From contig CAZBAJ010000003.1 of assembly GCA_964490125.1 (NCBI GenBank), forward strand, positions 33,941-97,940: a stretch of DNA of 64,000 nucleotides, read 5' to 3'. The notes under the pieces are model-generated. The model was not told the DNA's origin. It searched no databases and saw nothing but the letters and a program-made list of their open reading frames with translations. The position numbers were made by a program, and so were the translations under genes. The DNA is from an uncultured Candidatus Saccharibacteria bacterium. Its GTDB lineage: Bacteria > Patescibacteriota > WWE3 > UBA101185 > UBA10185. How positions within the stretch are numbered: the first letter of the stretch is position 1; each line of letters opens with the position of its first letter. Below, piece after piece: positions 4,614 to 55,192 of the stretch.

Positions 4614-5744
4614 TTACTCCTTTTTCTCACTTTGTCGCCAAATCAATTTACTGTAAACCAAGTAGTTCCATACAAGTCCCAACAAAATACCAATTCCAAA
4701 TCCGGTGTTTGCCACAACAAAAGTATTGCCCAACGCTTTTACAAACAAGTCCACTAGCTGGCTTCTAAATAAAATAGGTATTAGGGACGACGCGCCGTAA
4801 ACGGCGAATGTACCAATCAATTTGCCTATTCCAGTGATTTTTCGTTCTCCAAACGACCAAATATTATTTAGGGTAAAAGTAACTAACATGGCAAGAAAGC
4901 CGGAAACCACCGCGGAAAGCGACGAGTCAAACAAGGTAATTCTAAATATATTAAAAAGTCCCGTATCTACAGCCAGTCCGCACAAGCCCACCGCGCAAAA
5001 CCTAAAAAAGTTCTTATTCTCATTAATTCTAATAGAAAGCACCACTTTTAGGGAGTCCAGCGCGTTATTTTGTTCCATTTTAGAGTCGCCCAGGTCCCGC
5101 AAACCAAATGCAATGGGTACTTCCGCAATTTTTGCTCCCAGTTTGTACATTTTGTAGAGCAAATCTATTTTGTAGGCAAAGCCTTTGGAGCGCACGGACG
5201 ACAAATCAAGTCGGTCTAAATAGTTTCTAACGCGAGATGCTTTGTAACCGGAGGTAAAATCCGAGACCGTGTAAATACCCAAAACAACTTTGGAAAATAA
5301 GTTTCCGCCAACACTCCAAAATTTGCGATTTAAACCCCAGTCCTTAGGAATGGATCCGCCTTTAATAAAGCGGGAGCCTATAACATAGTCGTAACCTTCT
5401 TCCAGCTTTTTAATAAAGTTAGGAATTTCTTTAGGATCGTGCTGAAAATCCGCATCCATTTCCATAATTACATCTGCCCGCATATTTTGCATGGCGTGGT
5501 TAAAGGCGTAAATATACGCTCCACCCAACCCGGATTTTTCCTTTTCCATTAGCAAATGTACTCGTTCATTTTCTGTGGACATTTCCTGCACAAGCCCACC
5601 AGTTCCATCGGGTGAATTTCCGTCAACCACTAGAATATGGCAGTCATGCTGTGGAATTTTGTCGCACGACTCAAGTACCGCCGGAATTATCTTTACGATG
5701 TTTTGGGCTTCGTTATAAGTAGGTATAACAATAACAATTTTCAT
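4614..5744 (-). CDS. Polyprenol-phosphate mannose synthase-like GT2 fused to a C-terminal GtrA-like membrane domain
   Basis: 'VIVIPTYNEAQNI', 'VVDGNSPDGT' and 'MDADFQHDP' (DPM1-like), followed by four hydrophobic helices in a GtrA-like C-terminus. Confidence 0.75.
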   Translation of the reverse strand: MKIVIVIPTYNEAQNIVKIIPAVLESCDKIPQHDCHILVVDGNSPDGTGGLVQEMSTENERVHLLMEKEKSGLGGAYIYAFNHAMQNMRADVIMEMDADFQHDPKEIPNFIKKLEEGYDYVIGSRFIKGGSIPKDWGLNRKFWSVGGNLFSKVVLGIYTVSDFTSGYKASRVRNYLDRLDLSSVRSKGFAYKIDLLYKMYKLGAKIAEVPIAFGLRDLGDSKMEQNNALDSLKVVLSIRINENKNFFRFCAVGLCGLAVDTGLFNIFRITLFDSSLSAVVSGFLAMLVTFTLNNIWSFGERKITGIGKLIGTFAVYGASSLIPILFRSQLVDLFVKALGNTFVVANTGFGIGILLGLVWNYLVYSKLIWRQSEKKE

Positions 5745-6009: not shown

Positions 6010-6975
6010 TTAGATAAGCCTCCCTGGTTCCAGAGAAAAATAAATTACCGCTACGGCAAAAATCAAAAACGCCATGTGCGCAAAGGTATGACCGGTAAGT
6101 TTTAAAATTGCGTGTTTTTTTGAATACCAAATATCCAGCGTAAATAGCGCAAACATAAAGCAGGAGAAACTAAGCGCTACAATTTTGGTTGCTAAATAAA
6201 CATCTATTTTTGGTGTTGGGGTATAAATTGGTTGACTTTGTAGACCTGTTTGACCGGGCTGACTAGGTTCGTTTGGCGATTGCTCTAAATGTTGACTAGT
6301 TGGTTCCATTGCGGATGGTACTGCTTCCGTTGGATTAATGTTCCCCTGTTCCAAAGGTCGGACAGCGTAATTATTTTCCGTACCCTTTACTGCCACCTGT
6401 GCGGGCGCATACCTGGGTTTACCAAACATCTGCACTACCAAAGTGGTTTCATAACCGTCCAAAACGCCATTTACTACCGCATAACCTACATCCGTATATT
6501 TTCCATTAATTAAATTTTCCCTATGGGACGGGGACTTATACCAGGCTTCCACTACATCTTTAGAATTGCTAAAATTTTTTGCCAAATTTTCTCCCGCGTA
6601 TAAGTAGTCGTAATCGACACCCACAATAAAACTCCACGGGTCTGTGCCGTCCGGGGCAACATGCGCCCAGTAATTATTTTTAAACATATGTTCCGCTTTT
6701 TTCTGGGCGGCTTTAGTAAGTTTAGGGTCTACCGTCAAACTGCCAACCCCGGCAACCTCCCGTCGGTCATTGGTGTATTTTAATAAGTCGCTCACATAAA
6801 TATTACTTGCGTAACCTAAAACTCCTGGTAAAACCCCATGCACACCTCTAAAAAAAGAAAAAATTGTTAAAATACCCAACGAATAGACAAAAACCGCGCG
6901 GTTACGCAGTAAAGTTGCACGGCGTTTATGCTGGGGGTGTGGCAAAATATGCTTTTTTAGGTGTTTAACAGGCAT
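6010..6975 (-). CDS. CAP/SCP/PR1-like domain protein with C-terminal membrane anchor
   Basis: 'NNYWAHVAPDG...GENLA...AWYKSPSHRENL' is CAP-domain-like. There is a low-complexity Pro/Gln linker and a C-terminal transmembrane segment. Confidence 0.55.
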   Translation of the reverse strand: MPVKHLKKHILPHPQHKRRATLLRNRAVFVYSLGILTIFSFFRGVHGVLPGVLGYASNIYVSDLLKYTNDRREVAGVGSLTVDPKLTKAAQKKAEHMFKNNYWAHVAPDGTDPWSFIVGVDYDYLYAGENLAKNFSNSKDVVEAWYKSPSHRENLINGKYTDVGYAVVNGVLDGYETTLVVQMFGKPRYAPAQVAVKGTENNYAVRPLEQGNINPTEAVPSAMEPTSQHLEQSPNEPSQPGQTGLQSQPIYTPTPKIDVYLATKIVALSFSCFMFALFTLDIWYSKKHAILKLTGHTFAHMAFLIFAVAVIYFSLEPGRLI

Positions 6976-7094
6976 TAGTTTTTATTATACACTCGCTTGC
7001 ACCAATTTTGACACCCCTTGACGAGTATGCTAATCTTAACCTTGCAAAACCCCCGAGTCGGCGGGTTTTTTCTGTCACAGGAGGCAATAAGACT

Positions 7095-7577
7095 ATGAGT
7101 CATACAGTTATTGACGACACAAAAAAGATTATTCTAACCCCGCAAGGTTTAGAAGAATTAAAAAAAGAACTTAAAGAGCTTACGGAAGTTAAGCGCGTAG
7201 AAGTGGTGCAAAAAATATCAGTTGCGCGTGATATGGGCGACTTTTCGGAAAACTCGGCCCTTGCTTCTGCACGGGAAGAACAGTCCTTTATAGAAGGTCG
7301 CATTGCGGAGCTTGAGGACATTATTAAAAACGCGGTGGTTTCCACCGGTACAAGAACTAAAGGGATAGTTGAGGTTGGGTGCAAAATTAAAGTTCATGTT
7401 GACGGGGAAGAAGAGGAATTTCATATGGTTGGCGCGCCGGAGGCAGATCCTAAAGTCAAAAAAATATCCTACGAATCCCCACTTGGCAAGGCGTTAATGG
7501 GTAAAAAAGTGGGCGACAAAGTAGAACTGGACGCTCCCGACGGTAAAATCGTTTACACAATCCTTTCTGTAAGCTAA
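7095..7577 (+). CDS. greA: Transcription elongation factor GreA
   Basis: Coiled-coil N-terminus plus 'DMGDFSENSALASAREEQ...EGRIAELE' and a C-terminal FKBP-like domain. RBS 'CAGGAGG' at 7076-7082 supports the ATG at 7095; the longer ORF from 7008 is rejected. Confidence 0.8.
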   Translation: MSHTVIDDTKKIILTPQGLEELKKELKELTEVKRVEVVQKISVARDMGDFSENSALASAREEQSFIEGRIAELEDIIKNAVVSTGTRTKGIVEVGCKIKVHVDGEEEEFHMVGAPEADPKVKKISYESPLGKALMGKKVGDKVELDAPDGKIVYTILSVS

Positions 7578-30802: not shown

Positions 30803-31194
30803 AACCTGTACCGAAAACCGCCCTTAAGTAGTATTTTGTTTATAATGTACCTATGGTTAATAACAAATCTCTAATTTTGTCGCGCGCATCAGAAGCAGAA
30901 TGGTTGGAAGCAAGTAAAGCCGTACTCGGCATGTGGAAAAATAGACGGGATATGCGAGATTCGGTTGCTTGGGTGAGAAAAATTAGAAAAAACACAAGTT
31001 CTAAATCTGTGTCCTAGTATAAACGGCAATGCCGTGCTTCTGCCACAAACTTAAATTCCTTTAGATTCCCACAGGCTTGCTAACGGAGTGCCTAGGTTTT
31101 TTTGCATAACATTCAAAAGCTCAAGGGCGCGTCTTCTACCCTCTCTCCTCACAGGCACAGGTTACATAAGGTTTTTGCCAATTAATACTGTATC

Positions 31195-31884
31195 TCACGA
31201 ACGAGCCACTAAGCTCTTAAAGTCGTCGATGATTTCTTCTGCACGCCTAGTTTGAGCGCGCCACTCGCCTCCCGCTTCCATAAAGGTACTTACCTCATTG
31301 GCTACTTTTTTGCAACCATCTAACATGTCTTCAGCTAATTTGGGATTTGCAGACACTTCTTCCCTTGCCTTCTTTACGAACAAAGAAGCTACGGCTAGAG
31401 TATCGGAACGGATGCCGTCCGTGCTTGCCTGTCGTTCCGTCATCTGATTATTTTCAACTAAGCTCTCAATCCCAAGTTTATAAGCACGCATTTTAATGTA
31501 GGCCTCCCGTGCTAGTATTGGATCGTCCACAGTTCCCAGATATATTGCTGCAGTTAAGCGGTTTTGCCCATCGTACTGGAAACCAAGATCATCTGGATCA
31601 AAACTCTCAGTAGACTCTTTGTAATTGATTTCGTCCATGACCATGCCTCTGTAATCCAAAAGATCCGCTGATAATACCGTACTTGCTTCGCGTAAGATGC
31701 TTTGTAGCCTGTTGTTACAGGCGACAAGATCTTTCTCTGGGTTGAGTTCAACGGCTTGTCCCAGTGTATACCTACCGTTTGCAAGGACTAGCGCTCTAAA
31801 AGAGGCATCTTCCATGGCTTCTTTATGTTCTACTGTCCGCGCCTCATCAAATACATTAGTTGGATAGCTGTCATTTTTTTTCAT
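31195..31884 (-). CDS. ParB/Srx-superfamily (DUF262-like) protein
   Basis: 'FQYDGQNRLTAAIYLG' closely matches the DGQQRLT hallmark of DUF262/ParB-like nuclease domains. No DUF1524/HNH part is present. 229 aa. Confidence 0.4.
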   Translation of the reverse strand: MKKNDSYPTNVFDEARTVEHKEAMEDASFRALVLANGRYTLGQAVELNPEKDLVACNNRLQSILREASTVLSADLLDYRGMVMDEINYKESTESFDPDDLGFQYDGQNRLTAAIYLGTVDDPILAREAYIKMRAYKLGIESLVENNQMTERQASTDGIRSDTLAVASLFVKKAREEVSANPKLAEDMLDGCKKVANEVSTFMEAGGEWRAQTRRAEEIIDDFKSLVARS

Positions 31885-31917
31885 ACTGTAGTATCCTTTC
31901 CGACTTTCTAAGTCAAA

Positions 31918-32492: not shown

Positions 32493-33230
32493 TTGTTTGT
32501 CATCTTTTCCCGAGTAACTTATACTCTAATTATGTTTTTTCAAAGATTGAGGCATGGTGGCACTGATTTAAGTGGTTTGGTCCAAGTAGGTACAGTTAGA
32601 GAACTACAAACTCAAGAGCTTACTGATAAGGAGCGAGGAATGTTAGGTTGTTTTGACCTTGCCGTCCGACAGGAATTTTTTGAGCGGATTCACGAGTCTC
32701 CATTAGGAATTAGATTGGCTAAAGAGGTTGGCTTACGAATGAAGGTTTACGATAAAGACCCTAACAAGCCTGTAGCTCTTTCAAAAATCGCTCACAGTGC
32801 GACTGTAGATACAGTAGATATTTTACCAATGGAATCATCCCACTCCGATCTTAGAAGTCTGACAGATCCCTATATAATGGATAAAAATGGGGTTTTGTGT
32901 GTTGAAGCGTCAATGCTTGCGGAAGTGGCAGAGCATCTTGCTTATGGTTGGTCGGGTGATAGACCGGATTATACAGGCTATACTCAGGAAGTGTTTCTTA
33001 AGACAATGGGAATAGATGGTAAGGCAGGCTACCACATGGTGTTAAAATCGGTCTTCTCGGTTGAAGATGGTCGTCAAGTTTCAAGATTTTCAGATCCAAT
33101 TAATGGTCTAGAGGATAGCTGGGAAGCGTTGGTAGATGGAGAGGCTTATCTCGATTTTGAGGCTAGACCTACAGACATAGTAGGTTTTTCGGAACCCATC
33201 AAATTTTTATGGTACCCCCCTCGGTCGTAA
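32493..33230 (+). CDS. Hypothetical protein
   Basis: 245 aa ORF with no recognised motif. The start could be an internal Met. Confidence 0.35.
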   Translation: MFVIFSRVTYTLIMFFQRLRHGGTDLSGLVQVGTVRELQTQELTDKERGMLGCFDLAVRQEFFERIHESPLGIRLAKEVGLRMKVYDKDPNKPVALSKIAHSATVDTVDILPMESSHSDLRSLTDPYIMDKNGVLCVEASMLAEVAEHLAYGWSGDRPDYTGYTQEVFLKTMGIDGKAGYHMVLKSVFSVEDGRQVSRFSDPINGLEDSWEALVDGEAYLDFEARPTDIVGFSEPIKFLWYPPRS

Positions 33231-33914: not shown

Positions 33915-34018
33915 AGGATGAGTATAACATATTTGGGGATACAGAATCGTTATGGGTATGTTGATTCTCCAGACCGATTTTGCTATAAAGATGATACAAA
34001 TTATCCTGCCCTACTATT

Positions 34019-34330
34019 ATGCCAAGTTTAATCGTAAGACCGAGGGTATCGGATTTTTTGAATAAGCTAGAAAATAGCGCTTACGCTAAATCCTTGCGTC
34101 TATTAACATTGTTGAATAAATATCGTTACGAACTTAGAGAACCCTATACCAAAAAGATCACAGGAAATATCTACGAGCTAAGAATAAAGGGAAAACAAGA
34201 AGTTAGGCTTTTCTACGGTTACAGAAATAACGATATTATTATTGTTAGCGGATTTGTCAAAAAGACTCAAAAAATTCCGTCGACTGAGATAGACAAGGCA
34301 GAAAGAGAGTTTGCAGGCCTTGACATATAA
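34019..34330 (+). CDS. RelE/ParE-superfamily toxin, Gp49/HigB-like (DUF891)
   Basis: 'ITGNIYELRIKGKQEVRLFYGYRNNDIIIVSGFVKKTQKIPSTEIDKA' matches the Gp49-like toxin pattern. It is followed by an XRE antitoxin gene. Confidence 0.65.
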   Translation: MPSLIVRPRVSDFLNKLENSAYAKSLRLLTLLNKYRYELREPYTKKITGNIYELRIKGKQEVRLFYGYRNNDIIIVSGFVKKTQKIPSTEIDKAEREFAGLDI

Positions 34331-34354
34331 CATATATGTAATACAATTCCTGTT

Positions 34355-34648
34355 ATGGACGGTATGACACTAAATCAATTAATGGAAGAGGCCTTTAAAG
34401 ATCCTGAAGTTAAGGCTGAATATGACAGGCTTGAGCCCGAGTTTGCCATAATAGAGGCTACAATTATGAAGAGGCTAGAAAAGAAAATGACTCAAAAGGC
34501 GCTCGCTCAAAAATTACATACCAAACAAAGCGCCATTTCCAGGTTTGAGTCGGGTTTGTACAATCCTTCGATCAAGTTTTTAAGTAAGGTTGCTAAGGCG
34601 CTTGATTACAAGGTAGATGTTACTTTTAGTCCCTTAAATCCGGTTTAA
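34355..34648 (+). CDS. XRE-family HTH antitoxin (HigA-like)
   Basis: 'MTQKALAQKLHTKQSAISRFESG' is an HTH_XRE motif. 97 aa, immediately downstream of the toxin. Confidence 0.65.
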   Translation: MDGMTLNQLMEEAFKDPEVKAEYDRLEPEFAIIEATIMKRLEKKMTQKALAQKLHTKQSAISRFESGLYNPSIKFLSKVAKALDYKVDVTFSPLNPV

Positions 34649-34651
34649 AAT

Positions 34652-35383
34652 ATGTCGGACTTTGCCATCCAAAATTTGCACAAAGAACTAATCAGTGAAT
34701 TTGTTAGGTACGACAGCAAGAAGACGGGGCATTTTAACCTGTCGACCTACTTAGGTACTCAAAACAAGCTGTACCACCTAAATAGCGCTCAGGAAAAGCA
34801 AATCGCTAAGGATTTTTTAAGTCGTTATGCAGAAATTACACAGGAGCAATTTTTGGACTTGCTTAACGCGCTTTACGCGGGCGAGTCTTTTAACGAGAGG
34901 ACTTTTGGCACCAAGTTGTTAGCCTACAGAAAGCCGTTTAAGGGGCTTTTTACGCCACAGCGGGTTTATGGTTGGCTTGGCGGACTTTCCGGCTGGTGTG
35001 AGGTTGATTCACTTTGTCAAAGTACTTTTGCCGCTCAAGATTTGTTGGGCGACTGGGGGGATTGGTGCAAAATGCTGACTAAAATGTCGTGCGACAAGAA
35101 TATTTCCCGTAGGCGGGCAAGCTTAGTGCTGCTGTGTAAATCCGTTAGGGGCAGTTCCGATCAACGACTGGGGGATGTGGCTTTTGCAAATTTAGACCGA
35201 CTTAAGGGGGAAAAAGACATCTTAGTTTCTAAAGCCGCTTCTTGGTTGTTGCGGGACTTAATCAAACACCACCGTCTCCGCGTTATAGATTTTATAGCTA
35301 CATATCGGGATGTTTTGCCTAAATTCGTCGTAAGAGAAGTGGAAAACAAACTTAAATTCGGCAAAAAGTCCATAAAGAGGTAA
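34652..35383 (+). CDS. DNA alkylation repair enzyme-like (AlkC/AlkD HEAT-like repeat family)
   Basis: About 240 aa helical-repeat protein. Pattern 'GWLGGLSGWCEVDSLCQ...W...RRASLVLL' is consistent with the DNA_alkylation family. The call is from pattern memory only. Confidence 0.45.
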   Translation: MSDFAIQNLHKELISEFVRYDSKKTGHFNLSTYLGTQNKLYHLNSAQEKQIAKDFLSRYAEITQEQFLDLLNALYAGESFNERTFGTKLLAYRKPFKGLFTPQRVYGWLGGLSGWCEVDSLCQSTFAAQDLLGDWGDWCKMLTKMSCDKNISRRRASLVLLCKSVRGSSDQRLGDVAFANLDRLKGEKDILVSKAASWLLRDLIKHHRLRVIDFIATYRDVLPKFVVREVENKLKFGKKSIKR

Positions 35384-35384
35384 C
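35290..35384 (+). repeat. Direct repeat copy A (3' end of the alkD-like gene)
   Basis: gattttatagc...tcgtaagagaagtggaaaacaaacttaaattcggcaaaaagtccataaagagg. It recurs at 36562-36662 with the distal 52 bp about 88% identical. Confidence 0.6.
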
Positions 35385-35429
35385 TAATAATGAGTGGTTG
35401 GCAATAGATTTATGTGGTAAAATCGCGTC

Positions 35430-35654
35430 GTGATGGACATTAAAGCCAATTTTTATCGCACATACGCAAATTTACCAATGGGGGTTAGAAGCGAGATTAT
35501 TGCAGTAGTGGACGGTAATCCTTTAACATGGAATTCTCTAAGAATAGAAGTCGATAACGATACTCCCATAGCTAAAAAAGCACTGGAAAACATGGTTCAA
35601 ATGGAAATTTTACGAGAGGAGAAAAAGACCGATGTTACAGAAAATGCCAAATAA
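35430..35654 (+). CDS. Hypothetical small protein (cassette gene 1)
   Basis: 74 aa. Preceded by TGgTAAAAT (an extended -10) at 35415-35423. First of three overlapping, coupled ORFs. Confidence 0.35.
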   Translation: MMDIKANFYRTYANLPMGVRSEIIAVVDGNPLTWNSLRIEVDNDTPIAKKALENMVQMEILREEKKTDVTENAK

Positions 35655-35880
35655 TCCAACTAGTCAGAATATAAAGTGTTTAGTAACAGAGCGTATAAAA
35701 ACAATGTCGGGGAATATACACATTCATGTGGGCTCTAACCAAACCTCCCTATCTAAGGAAGAGCTTATTAAAAACATTTCAAATAACACCGAGGTTGGTC
35801 AAAAGCTTATAAAACAGCAGATGGCGTATATTCAAGCTACTGCCTCTGGAGAAATTTACAAACTGCTACAAAATGAATAA
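35644..35880 (+). CDS. Hypothetical small protein (cassette gene 2)
   Basis: Overlaps gene 1 (ATGCCAAATAA) and gene 3 (ATGAATAA), indicating translational coupling. An alternative start is at 35632. Confidence 0.35.
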   Translation: MPNNPTSQNIKCLVTERIKTMSGNIHIHVGSNQTSLSKEELIKNISNNTEVGQKLIKQQMAYIQATASGEIYKLLQNE

Positions 35881-36523
35881 GTCTTTGCTGGTCACGCGCC
35901 CTCGGCACGATGAAACAACCATGTACCTGTATTATTGGGCATCTTTAGTATTGGAGTTTGCAAAGACAAGAACCTTTTCCGTTTACGACTTGGAGGGAGA
36001 AAAGGCGAAGCCAGAATTGTTTAAAAGCTACATCGTTAGAAACAATCCTAGTTTGGTGTTTTTTAACGGCCACGGTAATCCAAAACAGATAGCAGGTCAT
36101 AATAACGAGGTTTTAATTGAAGTTAATAAGAATGAGGATCTTCTTAAAGGGCGCGTTGTCTATGCACTAAGTTGTAGTACCGCTACAGTTTTGGGTAAAA
36201 GCTGCGTAGACTCCGGTGCTAAGGCATACATTGGCTACACAGATGAATATGTTTTTGCGACTAGTGCTGACTGTATCTCCAGACCCCTACAAGATAATTT
36301 AGCAAAAATGTTTCTTGAACCCTCCAATCTTGTAATGACCACATTAATTAAGGGAAATAGCGTTTACGAGGCTTACAGTCGATCGAAAGAAGCGCTATTT
36401 AAGAATTTAAAATTCTCTCTTTCTAGTTTGGCGTCACAGGAGCAAAAGGAAGTTTCGGTATATTTGTGGACGGACATCAATATTTTTAAAGTTTTTGGCG
36501 ACTTAGATTCGGCTATTCTTTAG
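35873..36523 (+). CDS. Hypothetical protein with possible His/Cys dyad (FFNGHG ... YALSCS), possibly a caspase-fold peptidase (cassette gene 3)
   Basis: 216 aa. A hydrophobic strand followed by 'GHG', then a hydrophobic strand followed by 'SC' 34 residues later, loosely resembles the caspase/clostripain-fold His-Cys arrangement. Weak inference only. Confidence 0.4.
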   Translation: MNKSLLVTRPRHDETTMYLYYWASLVLEFAKTRTFSVYDLEGEKAKPELFKSYIVRNNPSLVFFNGHGNPKQIAGHNNEVLIEVNKNEDLLKGRVVYALSCSTATVLGKSCVDSGAKAYIGYTDEYVFATSADCISRPLQDNLAKMFLEPSNLVMTTLIKGNSVYEAYSRSKEALFKNLKFSLSSLASQEQKEVSVYLWTDINIFKVFGDLDSAIL

Positions 36524-36561
36524 GTTTGCGTTGCGATTTATGTACGGTGAAGATTTGCGGT

Positions 36562-36662
36562 TACCAGATGCGGATTTTATAGCCAAAAACCCAGATAATT
36601 ACCAAAGCCTATCGTAAGAGAGGTGGGGAACAAACTTAAATTGGGTAAAAGTCCATAAAGGA
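36562..36662 (+). repeat. Direct repeat copy B (non-coding degenerate duplicate of the alkD-like 3' end)
   Basis: gattttatagcc...atcgtaagagaggtggggaacaaacttaaattgggtaaaagtccataaaggat. An in-frame stop means it is a relic copy. Confidence 0.6.
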
Positions 36663-36677
36663 TGCTAAAATAGTCAA

Positions 36678-37322
36678 GTGACAATACCACAAGAGGTTCT
36701 GGATAAAATTATTTTCCTTTACCAAGGCTATTCTCGTGAACATAGGGCTAGTACCCAGCCATTTCATCTGGAGAAAGTCCAAAAAGCTATAAAAGATTAT
36801 GTTTATAAGTACGACGACTTGCTTGTACGCGAACCGTTAATTGAGCATACGGGTAGCCTCCCCATCGTCGCAACAACAATCTATCCCTATATAATTAATA
36901 AAAATGTGGACTTGGGTAGAGCCTTGATTATGCTTGCCGTGCACGATATTGGCGAGCTTATAGTGGGCGATGAAATTACCTTTACAAAAAAAGGTGAAAA
37001 CGCAAAGGGTGAGAAAGAACAGGCATTGAAACTGTTGCCGGAATATTACCATGTGGCTTACTTAGAAATGGAGGAAAGGGGCAGTGACACGGCAAGATTT
37101 GCCAAGGCAGTGGACAAAATGACTCCGGATATTGTCGACTTGATGACATCTGCCGAAGTTACCGTGGAGAGGTACAAAATGTTTGTTAAAAAGAAACCGC
37201 GGGAGATCGTTCCAACTATTAAGGAATTTAAACACCCGTACATGTTGTGGGACGACTTTATGAGAGACTTGCATTTAGAGATTTTGACGAGGATTGACGA
37301 TAAGCTTAGCCCTTTCTACTGA
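36678..37322 (+). CDS. HD-domain phosphohydrolase, YfbR-like 5'-deoxynucleotidase family
   Basis: 'LAVHDIGELIVGD' is the H-D...E...GD signature of YfbR-type HD proteins. Confidence 0.6.
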   Translation: MTIPQEVLDKIIFLYQGYSREHRASTQPFHLEKVQKAIKDYVYKYDDLLVREPLIEHTGSLPIVATTIYPYIINKNVDLGRALIMLAVHDIGELIVGDEITFTKKGENAKGEKEQALKLLPEYYHVAYLEMEERGSDTARFAKAVDKMTPDIVDLMTSAEVTVERYKMFVKKKPREIVPTIKEFKHPYMLWDDFMRDLHLEILTRIDDKLSPFY

Positions 37323-37360
37323 TGTTAAAATACCCCAAGCGTTAAAATCTTAGAAGAAAA

Positions 37361-37660
37361 TCACCCGCGCATCTTAGTTGAAGTAAAAATGTAAACCTCG
37401 TTTTTTAGGGCTTGTTCTAAAAGTAGCCTTACAACATCCTCCGTAGATAGGGACTTACTTTCAGCAATACTTTTAATATTTTTAGCAAGCGCTTGTGGAA
37501 TGCTCACTAACATATTATTAGGACTAAATTTTAGATTGGGAAAACTAACCCCGTGCAAAGGCTTTGCCGTATCGAAGTAGTCAACCGCTTCGTGTTTTTC
37601 CCAGAACTCAAATTCCTCGTCTTCGTTATTAAATTTTGGATACACTTTTACTCTTTTCAT
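37361..37660 (-). CDS. BrnA/CopG-like antitoxin (N-terminal 'PKF..EE.EFWE.H...DY' motif plus C-terminal RHH)
   Basis: 'YPKFNNEDEEFEFWEKHEAVDYFD' and C-terminal 'ALAKNIKSIAESKSLSTEDVVRLLLEQAL'. No cognate BrnT-like toxin was seen next to it. Confidence 0.55.
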   Translation of the reverse strand: MKRVKVYPKFNNEDEEFEFWEKHEAVDYFDTAKPLHGVSFPNLKFSPNNMLVSIPQALAKNIKSIAESKSLSTEDVVRLLLEQALKNEVYIFTSTKMRG

Positions 37661-37677
37661 AACGCCAGTTATTACAC

Positions 37678-39474
37678 TTACTCTGACGACTTTCTTTGAG
37701 ATTTGTGCAGGGCGAGGATTTCTTTGGGCGAAGTGGTGTCGGTGGGGGATTTGTCGTCACGGAATTTAATTAGGCGGGGAAAGCGCAGGGCGTAACCACT
37801 GGTATGGGTTTGGGAAACAGATATTTCGTCTCCACCTAGTTCCACTACAATTTGCGGTTGAGTCCAAACATCCGGAATTAAGACCTTGGGTACCTTAACA
37901 TTTTTGGGCGACTCTTTTACTTTTATTTTGTCGCACCGATTTTTTAATTCTACCCACTCTTCATCCCGTAATCCCGTGCCTACTTTGGTTAATGTGGTAA
38001 AAATTTGTTCTTTACTGTCCCAAAGCCCGCAAATAAAGCCTCCAATGCCAAAATTTGCCCTGGTACCTCGTCCAAAATAATAACCCAAAACCACGCAATC
38101 AATCGTGTCCTCCAGAATATCCGTATTGGAGCGTTTCAGCTTAATCCAGCTAAATTCTCTGGCGCCGGCGCGGTAGGGCGACTTTGGGTTTTTTATCATA
38201 ATGCCTTCTAGGTTTTTTTCTTTGGACGACTCGAAAAACTGCCACAACTGCGTCGGATCCCTAGTTTCTATATGCTTGGCAACTTCCAGCACCCCGTCGC
38301 CCTCAATGGATTTTTCCAGCAGTTTATGCCGTTCTACCAAGGAAAGCGTAGTGAGTGATTTGCCGTCCAAATACAAAATGTCAAAAACTATATATTTAAG
38401 CGGAATTTGCTTGGCGTAGTCGCCCACATTGTGCTTGCGTTTGCGTTGCATCATGTCCTGAAAGGGAATATAACGGTTGGTTTTTGGGTCGTAGCCAATG
38501 GCCTCTCCGTCCAAGATAATGTTTTTTGCGGAAATTTGCTTTAGCGCCGACTCTACAATATCCGGAAATTGATATGTGTTTTCTTCTAGGTTTCTTGTAA
38601 AGGTTTTTGCCAGTACAGAGCTTTTGTTGAAAGCAAACAAGCTGTTTTGATCCAGCTTCTTGTCCAAACCCGTCTTTGTTCTATCTAAATGTAGCTGAAC
38701 CCGCGTTCCGTCTAGTTTATATTCCGCCCACGCCGTACCTTCCATTTTTTCCAAAATCTCCTCCGGGTCGCTTAGGCGTTGGGCTTTTTGAGAAAGCACG
38801 GGAACTCCGGTTTCTATGTCAATGTCGTCTAGACCTTGTAGACCTTTTTCCTTAAGAACCCTTGATATAAAGCCTATATTTGGGTGAATGTTGTAAGTTT
38901 CTTCAATTTTGCGACTTGCGGACTTGTCGCCAGAAAGGATGTTTGACAGCGCGTCTATGACAGTCTGTTCCGTAAAGCCCAGCCTAGTGGTTCCGAGTAC
39001 AATTCTTATGGTATATTTTGCCGACAGGGGGGAGAGCGCTTTTAGTAGCTCCGAAAGCGCTAGGATTTTTCTGTCCTGCGAGCCCGCTCCTTCGTCAAGA
39101 GCAATCTCACACAGCACTTTATGAATGTCAAGGATCGACTGTTTTTCACCAGTTGTCTTTGGACTTAATTTGGCTACAACATCGCCCAAGTCGCCCGCAT
39201 ACGAGTACAGTTTTTCCACCTTTTCTCTATCTACGCCGTAACAAAGCTCAAGCGCCCGCACCACCATTTTGTCGGCCATATTAAATCTAATTTGATCGTA
39301 CGGGGGATTTAGATAGCCCAGGGAAAGAAAGACGGCTTTTTCTACCTCCTGCGGGGTCAATTTGGTGATCATTTCTGCCAAAATCGCGGTTATTTCCAAT
39401 CGTTTGCTGGTTTGGTTAAGTCGTTCTAAATAGTCAGAAAAAACAGAATAGGTCATGTGAGAACATTTTATCAC
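37678..39474 (-). CDS. lig: ATP-dependent DNA ligase
   Basis: Adenylation motif I 'EYKLDGTRVQLH' (KxDG), with nucleotidyltransferase and OB domains. 598 aa. Confidence 0.85.
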   Translation of the reverse strand: MIKCSHMTYSVFSDYLERLNQTSKRLEITAILAEMITKLTPQEVEKAVFLSLGYLNPPYDQIRFNMADKMVVRALELCYGVDREKVEKLYSYAGDLGDVVAKLSPKTTGEKQSILDIHKVLCEIALDEGAGSQDRKILALSELLKALSPLSAKYTIRIVLGTTRLGFTEQTVIDALSNILSGDKSASRKIEETYNIHPNIGFISRVLKEKGLQGLDDIDIETGVPVLSQKAQRLSDPEEILEKMEGTAWAEYKLDGTRVQLHLDRTKTGLDKKLDQNSLFAFNKSSVLAKTFTRNLEENTYQFPDIVESALKQISAKNIILDGEAIGYDPKTNRYIPFQDMMQRKRKHNVGDYAKQIPLKYIVFDILYLDGKSLTTLSLVERHKLLEKSIEGDGVLEVAKHIETRDPTQLWQFFESSKEKNLEGIMIKNPKSPYRAGAREFSWIKLKRSNTDILEDTIDCVVLGYYFGRGTRANFGIGGFICGLWDSKEQIFTTLTKVGTGLRDEEWVELKNRCDKIKVKESPKNVKVPKVLIPDVWTQPQIVVELGGDEISVSQTHTSGYALRFPRLIKFRDDKSPTDTTSPKEILALHKSQRKSSE

Positions 39475-39488
39475 CGATTGACAGATTT

Positions 39489-40490
39489 TTAGCCCTTGAG
39501 TTTGTATTTGGACGACTTGGTACTGCCCACTTTCACTATCACGCCTTTGTCTATCAGTAGTTTTAAGTCACGCAAAACGGAATCTTCCGAAATTGATGGG
39601 AACAGCGAGGCAAAATCCTTGTTGATCATAGTGCCGTAATTGGATAGGAACTGAACAATGCGTTCCTGCCTTTCCGTAAGATCCGTAAGACCTTGAGCCA
39701 CGGCGGTTTTAGTGCGTCGTTCGCCCAGCATAACTTTTTCTTTAATGTCCATGGCGTCGTAGGACAAGGCTTCCGAAAAATACTCCAGCCAGTAAGTGTA
39801 ATCTCCTTCGTCCTTAAAAATTGAGTAAGTGGCTTTTTGGTACCATTGCTTATCTGCTACAAAGCGCTCCTCATATTTTAAAAAGCCGTTTACGCTATAA
39901 CCGCGCCAACGCAAAGCCATTCTGGTAAATAAATTACTCACAACGGGGTTTAAGCTTTCAAAAGCGCCGATAATTTCTAGTCGGGCACGCAAAACGCCGG
40001 CAAAAACTACCGGGTGAGTTTCCAGCGCGTCCACGCTTTGACACCAGTCCATAAGTTCCACAAGTCCGGCTAAAATTTCTTCCGGATCAATATATTTGTC
40101 AATTTTTTGCGAACGATAGGGTAGTTTTCCAAAATCGTCCATACCCACAAGCATTTGGTAAACTCGTTTTAAACCCGTGTTTGAGTAATCTTCCGGTTCA
40201 AGAGTAGTATGGTTGACCGTTTTAACGATATTGCCAAGGTCCGCTGGTACGGTTTGCAATAGTCCGTCCTGTGCCATTTTAATTTGATTGTCAGAAAAAG
40301 TTTTTCCCAGTTCTGCACAAATAGCTTTAATTAAGCAAAACTGAGCCTCTTTTTGCATACTTTCTTCTAGCGCGGGCAAAATTGGGGTGTTTTCTGCCAG
40401 GGCTTTAGCATACTCCACCGTGGCAATGTTTTTTAGGATCTTATTGGTTATGGTGTACTCGGGCAGGAACATGTAAAACAATCTTTGCAT
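39489..40490 (-). CDS. Fic/DOC-family protein with C-terminal winged-helix domain (degenerate Fic motif)
   Basis: 'ETHPVVFAGVLRARLEIIGAFESLNP' sits where HPFx[DE]GNGR is expected. The C-terminal wHTH reads 'LTERQERIVQFLSNYGTMINKDFASLF...LRDLKLLIDKGVIVKVG'. Confidence 0.5.
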   Translation of the reverse strand: MQRLFYMFLPEYTITNKILKNIATVEYAKALAENTPILPALEESMQKEAQFCLIKAICAELGKTFSDNQIKMAQDGLLQTVPADLGNIVKTVNHTTLEPEDYSNTGLKRVYQMLVGMDDFGKLPYRSQKIDKYIDPEEILAGLVELMDWCQSVDALETHPVVFAGVLRARLEIIGAFESLNPVVSNLFTRMALRWRGYSVNGFLKYEERFVADKQWYQKATYSIFKDEGDYTYWLEYFSEALSYDAMDIKEKVMLGERRTKTAVAQGLTDLTERQERIVQFLSNYGTMINKDFASLFPSISEDSVLRDLKLLIDKGVIVKVGSTKSSKYKLKG

Positions 40491-44258: not shown

Positions 44259-45845
44259 ATGCCCAACATTGTTGAATCTCCCTTTGTAGGTGGCAAAGTT
44301 TTTGATCCCAAGCAGGAATTACACTCTCTGACCGCAGGTCAAGAACATTATTCCTATGAAGCTGTTGAGGATTTCAAACATAAATACGAATTCCAAACCC
44401 AGGGTCTAGCACAACTTGAGGAGGAAATCGTTGATGCTTTGGAAAAGAACCTAAGGACAACCAAAGAAACATTGATGGTAATGTTGGCAGAGAGATCGCA
44501 CGATCTTGGATTAACAGGGGAACAAAGTTTACTGGCATCTTCCTTAATTGGCGAATTTATGAACAGGCACGCTGCTGTAATGGATGTTTATGACAGGCAT
44601 AACGGAGATCCAAAGGCAATTTATCAGGAAGTATTTGGCAGAGAAGCCGTAGGTGATGTCGAGACGATTCTCGGTCCCTCCGTACTGTATTTTAGATGTC
44701 ATAGCGAGGATGACTACGCTTTGATATATAGTCAAAAGTTCTTAGCAACGGGGCAACCTCTGACAGAGGAGGATAAAAGGATTGCAAACAATTCTGGTGG
44801 TGCAAGTATACAAACCGCCCTTAGTCCATCTTTACAGGGAGCGTTAATTGCGGAAAACGCACACGGTAGACCCTACGATGGTGTAGCAAGGGAGATTTAC
44901 GAACATGAAAAAAGGCACGCACTCAACAAATTCTTTTTAGAGCGGGGAACGGCGATTAATAGATTTTACGAGATGAAGAATGCCAAAACACCGGAAGAGC
45001 GGGATTTTGCAATGAAGCAATATCTACGATTTATCAGAAGTGGGCAAGAAAGCCGTGCTGCCGATGAACTACTCGCTTATTCTAGTACTGGTAATGAGTC
45101 GCAGTATATTTTGGATACGCTAACTCGTAAAAAGGCTGACGGAGGGCTTTATGACTATTTTGCGGATTATGTAGGTAGCGACTCAACTGGCGGGGGGGGG
45201 CAGATGGAGGAATTTCTTATCAGTATACTGGGTTCGGAAAATAGGCAAAAAATACGAGATGCCATACAGCAGGTATTTGTGGATGAGTATAGGCGAGAAC
45301 TTACAAGAGGTATAGATTCGATCAAACGGCTTACTAGCAGGGGCTACTCACCCCAAGAAGCAACCTCGATTTTAGGGAGGACACCCCTTACAGAATGGAC
45401 GAAAATTAGCAGTCGTTTAGCTGCGGAAAGGTACTTACCGCGAGAGAAATTTTGGCTACCCGGCAACAAAGGTATTAAAGTAGTTGTTGCCGACAGCGAT
45501 GGTCAATTTTATGGTGATGTTGAATTAGCAAGGTACAACCCGTATACCGGTTTACCGGAATATGGGACCATGCGGGACGATCCTGCAGGTAACATTGATT
45601 CCATGCCTGTTGACGATCTTAAAGCTATTAATTATCCATTCAAAACACCTGATTTGTGGTATGAGGTTTGGATGCGTTCTGGAGGGGACCCTGCGGTGAA
45701 AGAAAGCCTAAATCTCGATTTTACCTCTACCCAAGAGATTTCTGCTGATGTTGCATGGGGAAAATTTAGAAGATACTGCAAACCCGATAGTAGGGCTCTT
45801 CGTGTTTTTAATACATATCGGAGGTTACTTCGTGAGGCGTATTAA
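44259..45845 (+). CDS. Large hypothetical protein (528 aa) with a single HExxH (HEKRH)
   Basis: No transmembrane segment. 'EIYEHEKRHALNKFFLERG' contains a potential zincin motif. There is an internal G9 homopolymer at 45192-45200. Confidence 0.45.
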   Translation: MPNIVESPFVGGKVFDPKQELHSLTAGQEHYSYEAVEDFKHKYEFQTQGLAQLEEEIVDALEKNLRTTKETLMVMLAERSHDLGLTGEQSLLASSLIGEFMNRHAAVMDVYDRHNGDPKAIYQEVFGREAVGDVETILGPSVLYFRCHSEDDYALIYSQKFLATGQPLTEEDKRIANNSGGASIQTALSPSLQGALIAENAHGRPYDGVAREIYEHEKRHALNKFFLERGTAINRFYEMKNAKTPEERDFAMKQYLRFIRSGQESRAADELLAYSSTGNESQYILDTLTRKKADGGLYDYFADYVGSDSTGGGGQMEEFLISILGSENRQKIRDAIQQVFVDEYRRELTRGIDSIKRLTSRGYSPQEATSILGRTPLTEWTKISSRLAAERYLPREKFWLPGNKGIKVVVADSDGQFYGDVELARYNPYTGLPEYGTMRDDPAGNIDSMPVDDLKAINYPFKTPDLWYEVWMRSGGDPAVKESLNLDFTSTQEISADVAWGKFRRYCKPDSRALRVFNTYRRLLREAY

Positions 45846-54154: not shown

Positions 54155-55192
54155 ATAGTAGTCTGGTCCCTCCTTTAAGGTGACTTTTAGGAGAAAAATT
54201 CGGCTATATGCTGGGACACCCGTACCACAATTAAGGGAAATATGTGGTTGACACCAAAATGTCGTAAAAGTATCTTGAACTACTAAACATATTCGGGTAA
54301 AATTCGTATATGTTCAGTGAAAATGTTTCAAGTGCGGACAATCAGCAGGAAAGACTGGGAACAAAAGTTCCCGGAATCCTCAGAGACTGTACGCCGAATG
54401 TCTCGGGTTCTTTTGGTTTACCTTCCTTATTGGGTCTACTTTATACTGATGGCTGTCTTTCAGCCAAAGGTAAAAGTTGGCGTTTATTCTTTGCCGTCAA
54501 GTCGTACAAACTGGTATGCGTGTTTGAAGAATGCGTCTATCGGTTGTTTAATGTCGACAAGGGCAGAGTGAGGGTAGCTAGAACAAAAGATGATTTATGG
54601 AGAGCGGTTGTAGACTCTAAAGAAATTGGAAACTACTTAACAAAAAACTTTGGTTGTTTTAGAACAGCAAAGTTTAAAGACGGTTCCTTACCGGGAATCA
54701 GGTTACCATTAACCTATCTTAGGCAATGTAACGGTATTAGAGAATTTTTGTCGTCCGCATTTAGTTGCGACGGCGGAGTTTCTTTTTATCCAGTTTACAG
54801 AACCGGTAGGTTTGGTGGAACTAGGTGGTTTAACAGAAATGTTTTTTTGGCGTGTATGCACCCTATGTTACTTAATGACTACAGTTTTTTGCTAAATTCA
54901 TTGGGTATAAAGGGGTCTGTGCTAAACGACAGGATAAAGATTTCTTCTAGAGAAGATATGTCCAACTTCCAGCGTGAAGTGGATTTTATCAAAGGTGTTG
55001 AGGTTACTAATCATTCCAAACTATGGAGAGGTTTAGATAAGTCAACACTATTAACATACGCTATAAATTCATATACAAACCGAGATAATGGTATAGCCCG
55101 ATCTCTATAGCGATATAGAGAGTTAGTGATAGTGTACTAACCTTTTGTCCTAATTAAAGAGTGACAAAAGCAACAAGCAGAAATATTACAAT
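54155..55192 (+). mobile_element. Intervening sequence or intron within the 16S gene (at the 'GGATTAGATACCC' ~785-800 region), carrying a homing-endonuclease ORF
   Basis: About 1036 nt absent from the canonical 16S alignment. The boundaries are ambiguous by 1-2 nt because 'at' is shared at the junction. Class (group I, other, or unspliced IVS) was not determined. Confidence 0.6.
54310..55110 (+). CDS. LAGLIDADG homing endonuclease (double-motif)
   Basis: Motif 1 'LLGLLYTDGCLS' and motif 2 'FLSSAFSCDGGVSF', about 100 aa apart, inside the 16S intervening sequence. 266 aa. Confidence 0.7.
   Translation: MFSENVSSADNQQERLGTKVPGILRDCTPNVSGSFGLPSLLGLLYTDGCLSAKGKSWRLFFAVKSYKLVCVFEECVYRLFNVDKGRVRVARTKDDLWRAVVDSKEIGNYLTKNFGCFRTAKFKDGSLPGIRLPLTYLRQCNGIREFLSSAFSCDGGVSFYPVYRTGRFGGTRWFNRNVFLACMHPMLLNDYSFLLNSLGIKGSVLNDRIKISSREDMSNFQREVDFIKGVEVTNHSKLWRGLDKSTLLTYAINSYTNRDNGIARSL

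Follow-up and report, generated by a model that had tools for sequence, protein, structure and literature searches.

A mobile three-gene cassette encoding a caspase-fold protein beside a duplicated alkD 3' end in a Candidatus Saccharibacteria genome

Layout of the locus and its expression signals

The stretch of DNA analysed here (the window) comprises 64,000 nucleotides (nt) of contig CAZBAJ010000003.1 from an uncultured Candidatus Saccharibacteria bacterium (assembly GCA_964490125.1, positions 33,941 to 97,940 of the forward strand). The subject is a cassette of three genes, A, B and C (together ABC), which lies between an alkD-like gene and a DNA ligase gene and is bracketed by a direct repeat of the alkD 3' end. 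C encodes a protein of caspase-type fold, and A and B encode two small proteins of their own families. The features of the locus are given below in window coordinates; labels such as L001 denote loci or contigs from relatives that were compared with the window.

34652 to 35383, plus strand: alkD-like gene, 243 amino acids (aa), PF08713 DNA_alkylation at E=2.3e-18; intact source of repeat copy 1.
35288 to 35377, plus strand: direct repeat copy 1, formed by the 3' end of the alkD coding sequence and delimited by local alignment with 36573 to 36660.
35415 to 35423, plus strand: extended -10 element TGGTAAAAT, ending 9 nt upstream of the ATG of A.
35433 to 35654, plus strand: gene A, 73 aa, a small, usually acidic protein.
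35632 to 35880, plus strand: gene B, 82 aa, a further small protein, sharing 23 nt with A and 8 nt with C.
35873 to 36523, plus strand: gene C, 216 aa, a standalone clan-CD (caspase-hemoglobinase fold) cysteine peptidase-like protein with the dyad H67/C101.
36525 to 36560, minus strand: apparent relic of a DNA ligase 3' end, probably left by an earlier junction at which C and the ligase gene converged; it reads PQIFTVHKSQRK, where the ligase C-terminus has ...ILALHKSQRKSSE and stop.
36573 to 36660, plus strand: direct repeat copy 2, a frameshifted, non-coding relic of the alkD 3' end, with protein-level similarity from about 36552.
36663 to 36671: the HD gene's own TGCTAAAAT box, ending 6 nt before the GTG start.
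36678 to 37322, plus strand: HD-domain gene, 214 aa, in the putative second allele block; Pfam HD_3 at E=1.1e-9, YfbR-like at E=2.2e-4.
37361 to 37660, minus strand: CopG-type antitoxin gene (PF12441, E=3.4e-12), in a block absent from L012.
37678 to 39474, minus strand: ATP-dependent DNA ligase gene, identified by Pfam families on the identical L001 gene; intact counterpart of the ligase relic and right conserved flank of the variable slot.

The first-pass annotation, made from the letters alone, had described three coupled open reading frames (ORFs) of 74, about 78 and 216 aa. The coupling and the length of C held, and the two small genes had to be redefined. The database gene call and the alignment with L012 and L007 place the start of A at the ATG rather than at the GTG at 35430. 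The start of B (MLQK) is kept in the close homologues P0057, P0058 and L012, and B therefore has 82 aa. The short overlap between B and C reads ATGAATAA. The overlapping reading frames of the three genes suggest that their translation is coupled.

The extended -10 element was placed correctly in the earlier description, and its distance to the ATG of A is 9 nt instead of the approximately 6 nt given there. A consensus promoter scan did not call TGGTAAAAT, a good -35 element being absent. A similar box is found at the same place in L012 (TGTGGTAAAAT) and in L007 (TGTGGTATCAT), the latter in an otherwise unrelated context. Across loci, a -10 hexamer ending 4-14 nt before the ATG of A was present in 27 of 56 bacterial loci compared with 44 of 253 control ORF starts (p=5e-6), and 15 of these 27 loci carry the TGn extension. 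A Shine-Dalgarno (SD)-like motif precedes A in only 1 of the 56 bacterial loci, compared with 45 of the 253 controls. This cross-locus comparison of -10 and SD frequencies supports the proposed leaderless or short-leader transcript, and the ABC transcript is probably leaderless or near-leaderless. The HD gene also lacks an SD motif, and L092 has a TGTTAAAAT box at the same place as the TGCTAAAAT box of the window; leaderless expression may be common in this genome.

The A-B-C operon and the protein families it encodes

A, B and C form one strictly co-conserved, tightly coupled accessory operon, which confirms how the three ORFs had been read at first. The triplet of two small genes and a larger one was seen in unrelated neighbourhoods on the contigs of C homologues. 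With hidden Markov models (HMMs) for A and B, the order A-B-C, on one strand and with abutting genes, was found in 86 of 92 loci; five of the six exceptions lie at contig ends and the sixth has a frameshifted C (L070). The HMM of the B family matches 90 ORFs, each of which is located between A and C. The species survey, a pattern-limited scan of 185,579 species genomes with one genome per GTDB species, gave 93 hits and 80 loci. The hosts belong to many classes of Patescibacteria (candidate phyla radiation, CPR), to DPANN archaea (Woesearchaeota, Nanoarchaeota) and to Altiarchaeota, with one isolate from the Bacteroidota. This cultured bacterium, Nemorincola caseinilytica JCM 32105 (L054), is the only hit from a named strain. 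Decayed cassettes occur as well: in L012 (3942-4715) C lacks its last approximately 10 codons where the ligase gene overlaps it, in L070 (5923-6649) C is split by a frameshift, and in L087 (1244-1543) A and B are fused through an internal deletion. Literature searches for a described caspase-like cassette of CPR bacteria or DPANN archaea returned nothing relevant.

Protein C has the caspase-hemoglobinase alpha/beta/alpha fold of MEROPS clan CD. It also has the arrangement of this clan, a His (followed by Gly) and then a Cys, each right after a hydrophobic beta-strand: His67 (NGHG) follows strand 61-66 and Cys101 (YAxSC) follows strand 95-100. Both residues are invariant among 29 homologues, so that the His/Cys dyad and the caspase-like fold suspected from the sequence are borne out; further invariant positions are R9, G121-Y122 and D141, of which R9 and D141 are candidate residues of the S1 pocket. 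The values listed for C are 18.0 for gingipain RgpB, 17.4 for gingipain Kgp, 16.6 for SAVED-CHAT, 13.7 for both separase and metacaspase, and 13.0 for legumain. Among the viral proteins of BFVD, the closest structural neighbours of C are caspase or clostripain domains of giant viruses, and none was closer.

At the sequence level, the comparison of C with PF01364 (family C25) gave 13.5 bits (E=0.042), below the cut-off of 23. Nothing significant was found in Pfam, NCBIfam, PHROGs or PADLOC, and a PDB profile search returned no peptidase. Because sequence-level membership in every existing family fails, C is a new family within clan CD, that is, a family of minimal, standalone proteins of the caspase/gingipain fold which are predicted to act as cysteine proteases. 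The 55 homologues of C retrieved through a word index are about 215 aa long, and none of them carries a Pfam domain. An exhaustive profile search placed 2,692 clusters at 50% identity in the family at E<=1e-3, 1,457 at E<=1e-10 and 414 at E<=1e-30. The best 150 clusters listed are all short single-domain proteins, most of them of 200-230 aa.

A and B have no relatives in Pfam or PDB sequence searches, nor any significant match in PHROGs. A has a conserved E-x-x-N-D-T at positions 39-44. There is a weak hint that they are paralogous to each other (hhalign P=0.0014, probability 18%). L17, V18, R21, G34 and G56 of B are invariant in 25 database homologues, and G73 is nearly so. The family median isoelectric points (pI) are 5.7 for A, 5.1 for B and 8.65 for C, which makes A and B mildly acidic and C mildly basic.

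The alkD-ligase slot and the mobility of the cassette

The duplication of approximately 95 bp of the alkD 3' end as a degenerate non-coding copy, reported in the first-pass annotation, is real. The two copies are identical in 70 of 87 ungapped columns (80%) with four indels, and over the distal 50 nt the identity reaches 88%. The alignment score of 69 compares with 18.0 +/- 2.7 and a maximum of 33 in 300 shuffles. Translated with two frameshifts, the downstream copy gives DLRLPDADFIAKNPD / LPKPIVREVGNKLKLGKSP and a stop, which corresponds to the C-terminus of the alkD product; it is therefore a pseudogene fragment. Alternatively, the repeat and the relics could reflect random similarity, or strain variants assembled into a chimera; the metagenomic origin of the DNA, together with the position of the cassette less than 1 kb from a contig end in roughly a quarter of the loci, could speak for this. 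This explanation is nevertheless very improbable. The score lies far beyond the shuffle distribution. The repeat itself is contained in L001, which is 97-99% identical to the window, and L095-L097 agree with the window in gene order and spacing, the features on which they were compared. The same arrangement thus occurs in independent assemblies, from the independent samples SRR8925812, SRR11845628 and SRR11845629, and is not an assembly artefact. Moreover, the copies are 80% identical and frameshifted rather than identical, which argues against a k-mer collapse.

More distant relatives carry other contents in the same place. The alkD-like protein of the window is 71% identical to its orthologue in L012 and 78% identical to that in L092. 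From HigB through C, L012 is collinear with the window (70% nt identity); the C protein is 69% identical in L012. Its 3'-truncated C directly overlaps a convergent DNA ligase gene (73.5% nt identity to the ligase of the window), which gives the order alkD-A-B-C-ligase, without a counterpart of window positions 36489-37690. L092 has the order HigB-HTH-alkD (HTH, helix-turn-helix), followed by a 132-aa Glyoxalase gene (PF00903) and the HD gene, the latter at 81% nt identity to the window. Similarity between L092 and the window breaks off at 35352 and begins again at 36657, precisely where the relic ends, and the relic itself is absent from L092. As these lineages carry different cargo, ABC in L012 and glyoxalase-HD in L092, the slot downstream of alkD is variable. 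The empty-site comparison proposed with the first-pass annotation was thus informative in part: it revealed this variable slot, in which L092 has a glyoxalase gene instead of the cassette, whereas exact-protein look-ups of alkD and HD among close strains returned only the arrangement of the window and no allele in which alkD is followed directly by HD.

The order of events can be read from the degree of divergence. The alkD relic is 80% identical to the alkD of the window, and the orthologous 3' ends of L012, L092 and L093 are 63-73% identical to it. The relic is closer than the orthologues, yet L012 already has alkD next to ABC, and a non-coding copy of the same age as this adjacency would be expected to have diverged further than the orthologues; therefore, the duplication is younger than the alkD-ABC adjacency. 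A second relic is found directly after the stop codon of C, where 36 nt (36525-36560) resemble the minus-strand 3' end of a ligase gene. This segment matches the C/ligase junction of L012 in 18 of 22 nt (a score reached by 2 of 500 shuffles) and the window at 37696-37721 in 20 of 26 nt (5 of 500 shuffles). In L012 the genuine 3' end of the ligase gene occupies this position; in the window the segment and the alkD relic adjoin each other back to back.

The two relics, together with the relatives, lead us to read the locus as two joined alleles, X-[ABC]-Y'|X'-[HD-CopG]-Y, in which X denotes the alkD 3' end and Y that of the ligase gene. The window would then stack alkD-[A-B-C]-ligase 3' relic on alkD 3' relic-[HD-CopG]-ligase. 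An L012-like allele and an HD-bearing allele have probably met at one illegitimate junction at approximately 36550-36572. The most economical route would be homology-facilitated illegitimate recombination, that is, one crossover in a shared flank and one illegitimate join, and the alkD repeat would be a by-product of this recombination rather than an attachment site. Such a process is matched by the truncated alkD and ligase 3' ends lying back to back between two cargo blocks and by the single alternative cargoes of the relatives. Known cases differ in that the history is deduced here from structure, with donor and recipient alleles unobserved, and most other ABC loci are without detectable repeats. 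Several points weigh against this reading. The alignments of the ligase relic are short, covering 22-26 nt (shuffle p of about 0.004-0.01), and its support is partly positional, through L012. No ABC-free alkD-HD-CopG-ligase allele was found, the four close-strain contigs (L001, L095-L097) have the arrangement of the window wherever they overlap the locus, and the data do not tell the resident block from the incoming one. On balance, a history of stacked alleles at this locus is quite probable.

Comparison of other ABC loci bears on how the cassette moves. Among 418 ORFs neighbouring ABC the largest homology cluster has five members, and the Pfam families of the neighbours are heterogeneous. 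Cassettes that are 83-90% identical at the nt level (L018/L019/L023, L051/L067, L039/L053, L021/L027) have no detectable homology adjoining the cassette, with at least 5 kb on each side compared for L039/L053 and L021/L027; the sole other match of L019/L023 lies about 3 kb downstream. The shared block starts approximately 12-53 nt upstream of the called A ORF, the call beginning up to about 65 nt before the true ATG, and ends at or near the stop codon of C, between about 50 nt upstream and 1 nt downstream of this codon. Judged from these comparisons, ABC is a self-contained, horizontally mobile unit of about 1.1 kb which crosses the boundary between bacteria and archaea. It is not an integron gene cassette, in which an attC would travel with the ORFs, given that the homology ends near the C stop.

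Direct repeats (36-117 bits, within 500 nt on either side) were found at 10 of 63 non-redundant ABC loci, compared with 1 of 237 pseudo-cassettes of equal size placed elsewhere in the same loci (Fisher p=8e-7). These controls are mostly core genes, so that the excess places ABC at recently recombined points and is no proof of an insertion chemistry of its own. At three more loci the sequence just after C recurs 0.8-1.8 kb downstream. The repeats consist of local sequence, namely gene 3' ends, one gene 5' end and promoters, and range from 22 to about 700 nt. At the 10 loci they enclose no recombinase, and at nine loci no conserved cassette ends, attachment (att) core or inverted-repeat element was found inside them. 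A recurrence of the cassette flanked by the same repeat, which had been suggested as a check, was not seen: the repeats at other loci are unrelated in sequence and length.

Individual loci show how varied these arrangements are. In L008 (3525-6598) a repeat of about 65-97 nt, which ends in a hairpin and a T-run, is present in four copies spaced by 701, 1478 and 798 nt; they separate a 68-aa ORF, ABC and a 183-aa ORF and form a cassette array. Two tRNA-Met genes and a large serine recombinase gene are located just upstream, the recombinase gene at a distance of about 3 kb. In L076 (4116-6725), ABC and a second cassette follow each other and are flanked by three copies of a 147-nt segment, the 3' end of a 413-aa gene; the copies are 80% and 65% identical to the reference, and an additional 61-nt repeat (5336-5396/7807-7867) is 98% identical. 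In L054, ABC lies between two blocks of about 700 nt (4742-5420 and 6769-7446; 70% identical), each with an ORF that by eye resembles a Cro/C1-type HTH regulator. In L050 (1219-1318 / 2484-2582) the downstream 136-aa gene has its 5' end repeated, start codon included; the relic copy precedes A by 33 nt and so mirrors the 3'-end relic of the window.

The first-pass annotation had explained the alkD repeat by site-specific integration. ABC would have entered the 3' end of alkD by site-specific recombination, with an integrase provided in trans, the element would have brought a replacement 3' end, and the displaced original would be the downstream relic. The direct repeat of a gene 3' end around the cassette fits this scheme, and so does the contiguity of the relic with the HD promoter, as expected of a displaced original end. 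Flanking direct repeats elsewhere, the three or four copies in the arrays of L076 and L008, such as tandem site-specific integration yields, and the serine recombinase about 3 kb upstream in L008 point in the same direction. However, a recombinase is absent from every repeat-bounded unit; in the window only A, B and C lie between the repeats, and no recombinase family was found among the flanking genes scanned, in agreement with the earlier remark that no integrase is present. The repeats vary between loci and have no common core, and near-identical cassettes lose homology within about 50 nt of the C stop, so that no att-like sequence lies downstream of C. Attachment at a tRNA gene is excluded, because the interval 33.5-38 kb contains no Rfam family match and the closest tRNA gene lies at a distance of about 14 kb. 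Integration would also leave the ligase relic between C and the alkD relic unexplained, and L012 shares the alkD-ABC adjacency at 70% identity, the 80% identical duplication being the younger. Site-specific integration at alkD is therefore not supported and is regarded as improbable, in contrast to the joining of two alleles described above.

The surroundings of the cassette had been called defence-island-like, which overstates them. The region is a toxin-antitoxin (TA)-rich variable region, not a compact defence island. Pfam confirmed HigB/Gp49 with an HTH antitoxin, the HD_3/YfbR-like gene and the CopG antitoxin, the last of which corresponds to the antitoxin noted earlier. AbiEii is located at 26.7 kb, a weak RnlA-like match at 45.9 kb, and DUF3800, likewise noted earlier, at 51.8 kb. 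Scattered among these are housekeeping and other genes, namely a ligase, RecF-like and MutM-like genes and a glycosyltransferase (Pfam on near-identical L001 genes), and a tRNA methyltransferase. The sizeable ORFs at 39489-40490 (minus), 31195-31884 (minus), 32493-33230 (plus) and 44259-45845 (plus), among them the ORF of 333 aa taken for Fic, have no Pfam match at E<=1e-3. A free-standing 266-aa ORF at 54310-55110 (plus) matches LAGLIDADG_3 (E=1e-6) and may be homing-endonuclease-like. Strain-level indels occur within a few kb of the cassette: L001 lacks the HigB/Gp49 toxin gene (window 33915-34488), a stretch also missing in L093 and L094, and where the window has the 229-aa ORF (31195-31884) it carries another segment (window 31121-31893).

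Possible function of the A-B-C module

C may act as a cytoplasmic, minimal clan-CD cysteine peptidase with His67 and Cys101 as the catalytic pair, and A and B may be its small partner proteins. On this view, C would be kept inactive by the binding of A, B or both, whether these serve as inhibitor, pseudo-substrate or substrate; once the partners are lost or titrated away, C would be released and cleave targets in the cell, with growth arrest as the outcome. Analogues of such a control are omega-epsilon-zeta, separase-securin, Craspase-Csx30 and CalpL-CalpT. A tripartite module of the TA or abortive-infection type with a protease effector is accordingly a tentative proposal, in which the activity of C, its interaction with A and B and the role in toxicity or defence are all presumptive. 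The TA-like traits are the small-small-large order, the overlaps, the decayed copies and the family median pI values, acidic for A and B and basic for C, and other TA genes adjoin the cassette in the window and in L010. ABC is, as expected of a TA or defence system, a compact, co-transcribed, mobile and patchily distributed module.

Some observations do not favour this proposal. A, B and C have no matches in PADLOC (0 families for the three), in the Pfam TA families or in NCBIfam, and no ABC relatives were found among IMG/VR viral contigs. To our knowledge, no known TA toxin has a caspase-type fold. A has no recognisable DNA-binding fold, neither ribbon-helix-helix nor HTH. The window's own proteins depart from the family pI, B being basic (9.2) and C neutral (6.8), and ordinary housekeeping genes are among the neighbours of ABC. 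In another possible role, ABC would be a dedicated proteolytic maturation, transpeptidation or regulatory system of CPR and DPANN cells, with A and B as substrates or adaptors. Enzymes of the clan-CD type such as legumain, GPI8 and PorU process or ligate specific proteins. The strict co-conservation of A, B and C and the strong purifying selection on all three genes would suit a role of this kind, as would an occurrence largely limited to two groups of ultra-small episymbionts, the frequent housekeeping neighbours and the lack of a match to known defence or TA families. It is opposed by the patchy occurrence in the species survey, by a context that differs even at 90% cassette identity and by the existence of pseudogenised copies. 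Moreover, no conserved neighbour is fit to be a substrate or pathway partner, and the N-terminus of C (MNKSLLVTRPRHDETT), the only one of the three inspected, has no obvious signal peptide. A maturation role is thus rather unlikely, and slightly more so than the TA or abortive-infection type module with C as effector.

The proposed conflict-type module with a protease effector can be compared with known systems. The families of clan CD include gingipains (C25), caspases and metacaspases (C14), legumain (C13), clostripain (C11) and separase (C50). C differs from them in having only 216 aa, without a pro-domain, an Ig-like or any added domain; it stays below every sequence threshold, is apparently cytoplasmic and is always encoded with two small partner genes. 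From the CHAT-domain proteases of immunity and signalling in prokaryotes (SAVED-CHAT, Craspase TPR-CHAT with Csx30, the DdvA anti-sigma factor), ABC differs in lacking a sensor domain (SAVED, TPR) and any CRISPR or cyclic-nucleotide context; the partners of C have only 60-85 aa, and there is no PADLOC match. With tripartite TA systems like omega-epsilon-zeta it shares the small-small-large order, overlapping ORFs and a compact, self-promoted, mobile and patchy nature with decayed copies. Unlike them, its putative toxin has a protease fold instead of being a kinase or RNase, and A is not a ribbon-helix-helix or HTH protein.

Taken together, the allele-stacking history of the locus and the identity of A-B-C as a mobile protease module form a joint reading towards which we lean slightly. 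A bolder formulation is doubtful, though worth stating: ABC could be an undescribed tripartite conflict module, consisting of the smallest known standalone caspase-fold protease and two small controllers of novel fold, which spreads as a 1.1-kb unit between CPR bacteria and DPANN archaea without a cassette-encoded recombinase and often leaves target duplications of variable length.

Summarizing, the locus would be a clean natural case of two hotspot alleles stacked by a single illegitimate junction, and it cautions that the duplication of a gene end need not be the footprint of an integrase. Proteases of the caspase fold are increasingly recognised as effectors in prokaryotic immunity and in programmed cell death, and the characterised examples known to us are large proteins of several domains, coupled to sensors. 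In ABC, a bare predicted catalytic domain of 216 aa is always accompanied by the same two proteins of 60-85 aa, in a family of well over 1,000 clusters at 50% identity outside Pfam, NCBIfam and PADLOC. ABC adds a new family, with a new operon architecture, to a known protease clan. The cassette is widespread in the genomes of CPR bacteria and DPANN archaea, in which the family is concentrated, and may offer a minimal, experimentally tractable system for the restraint and release of a caspase-like protease.

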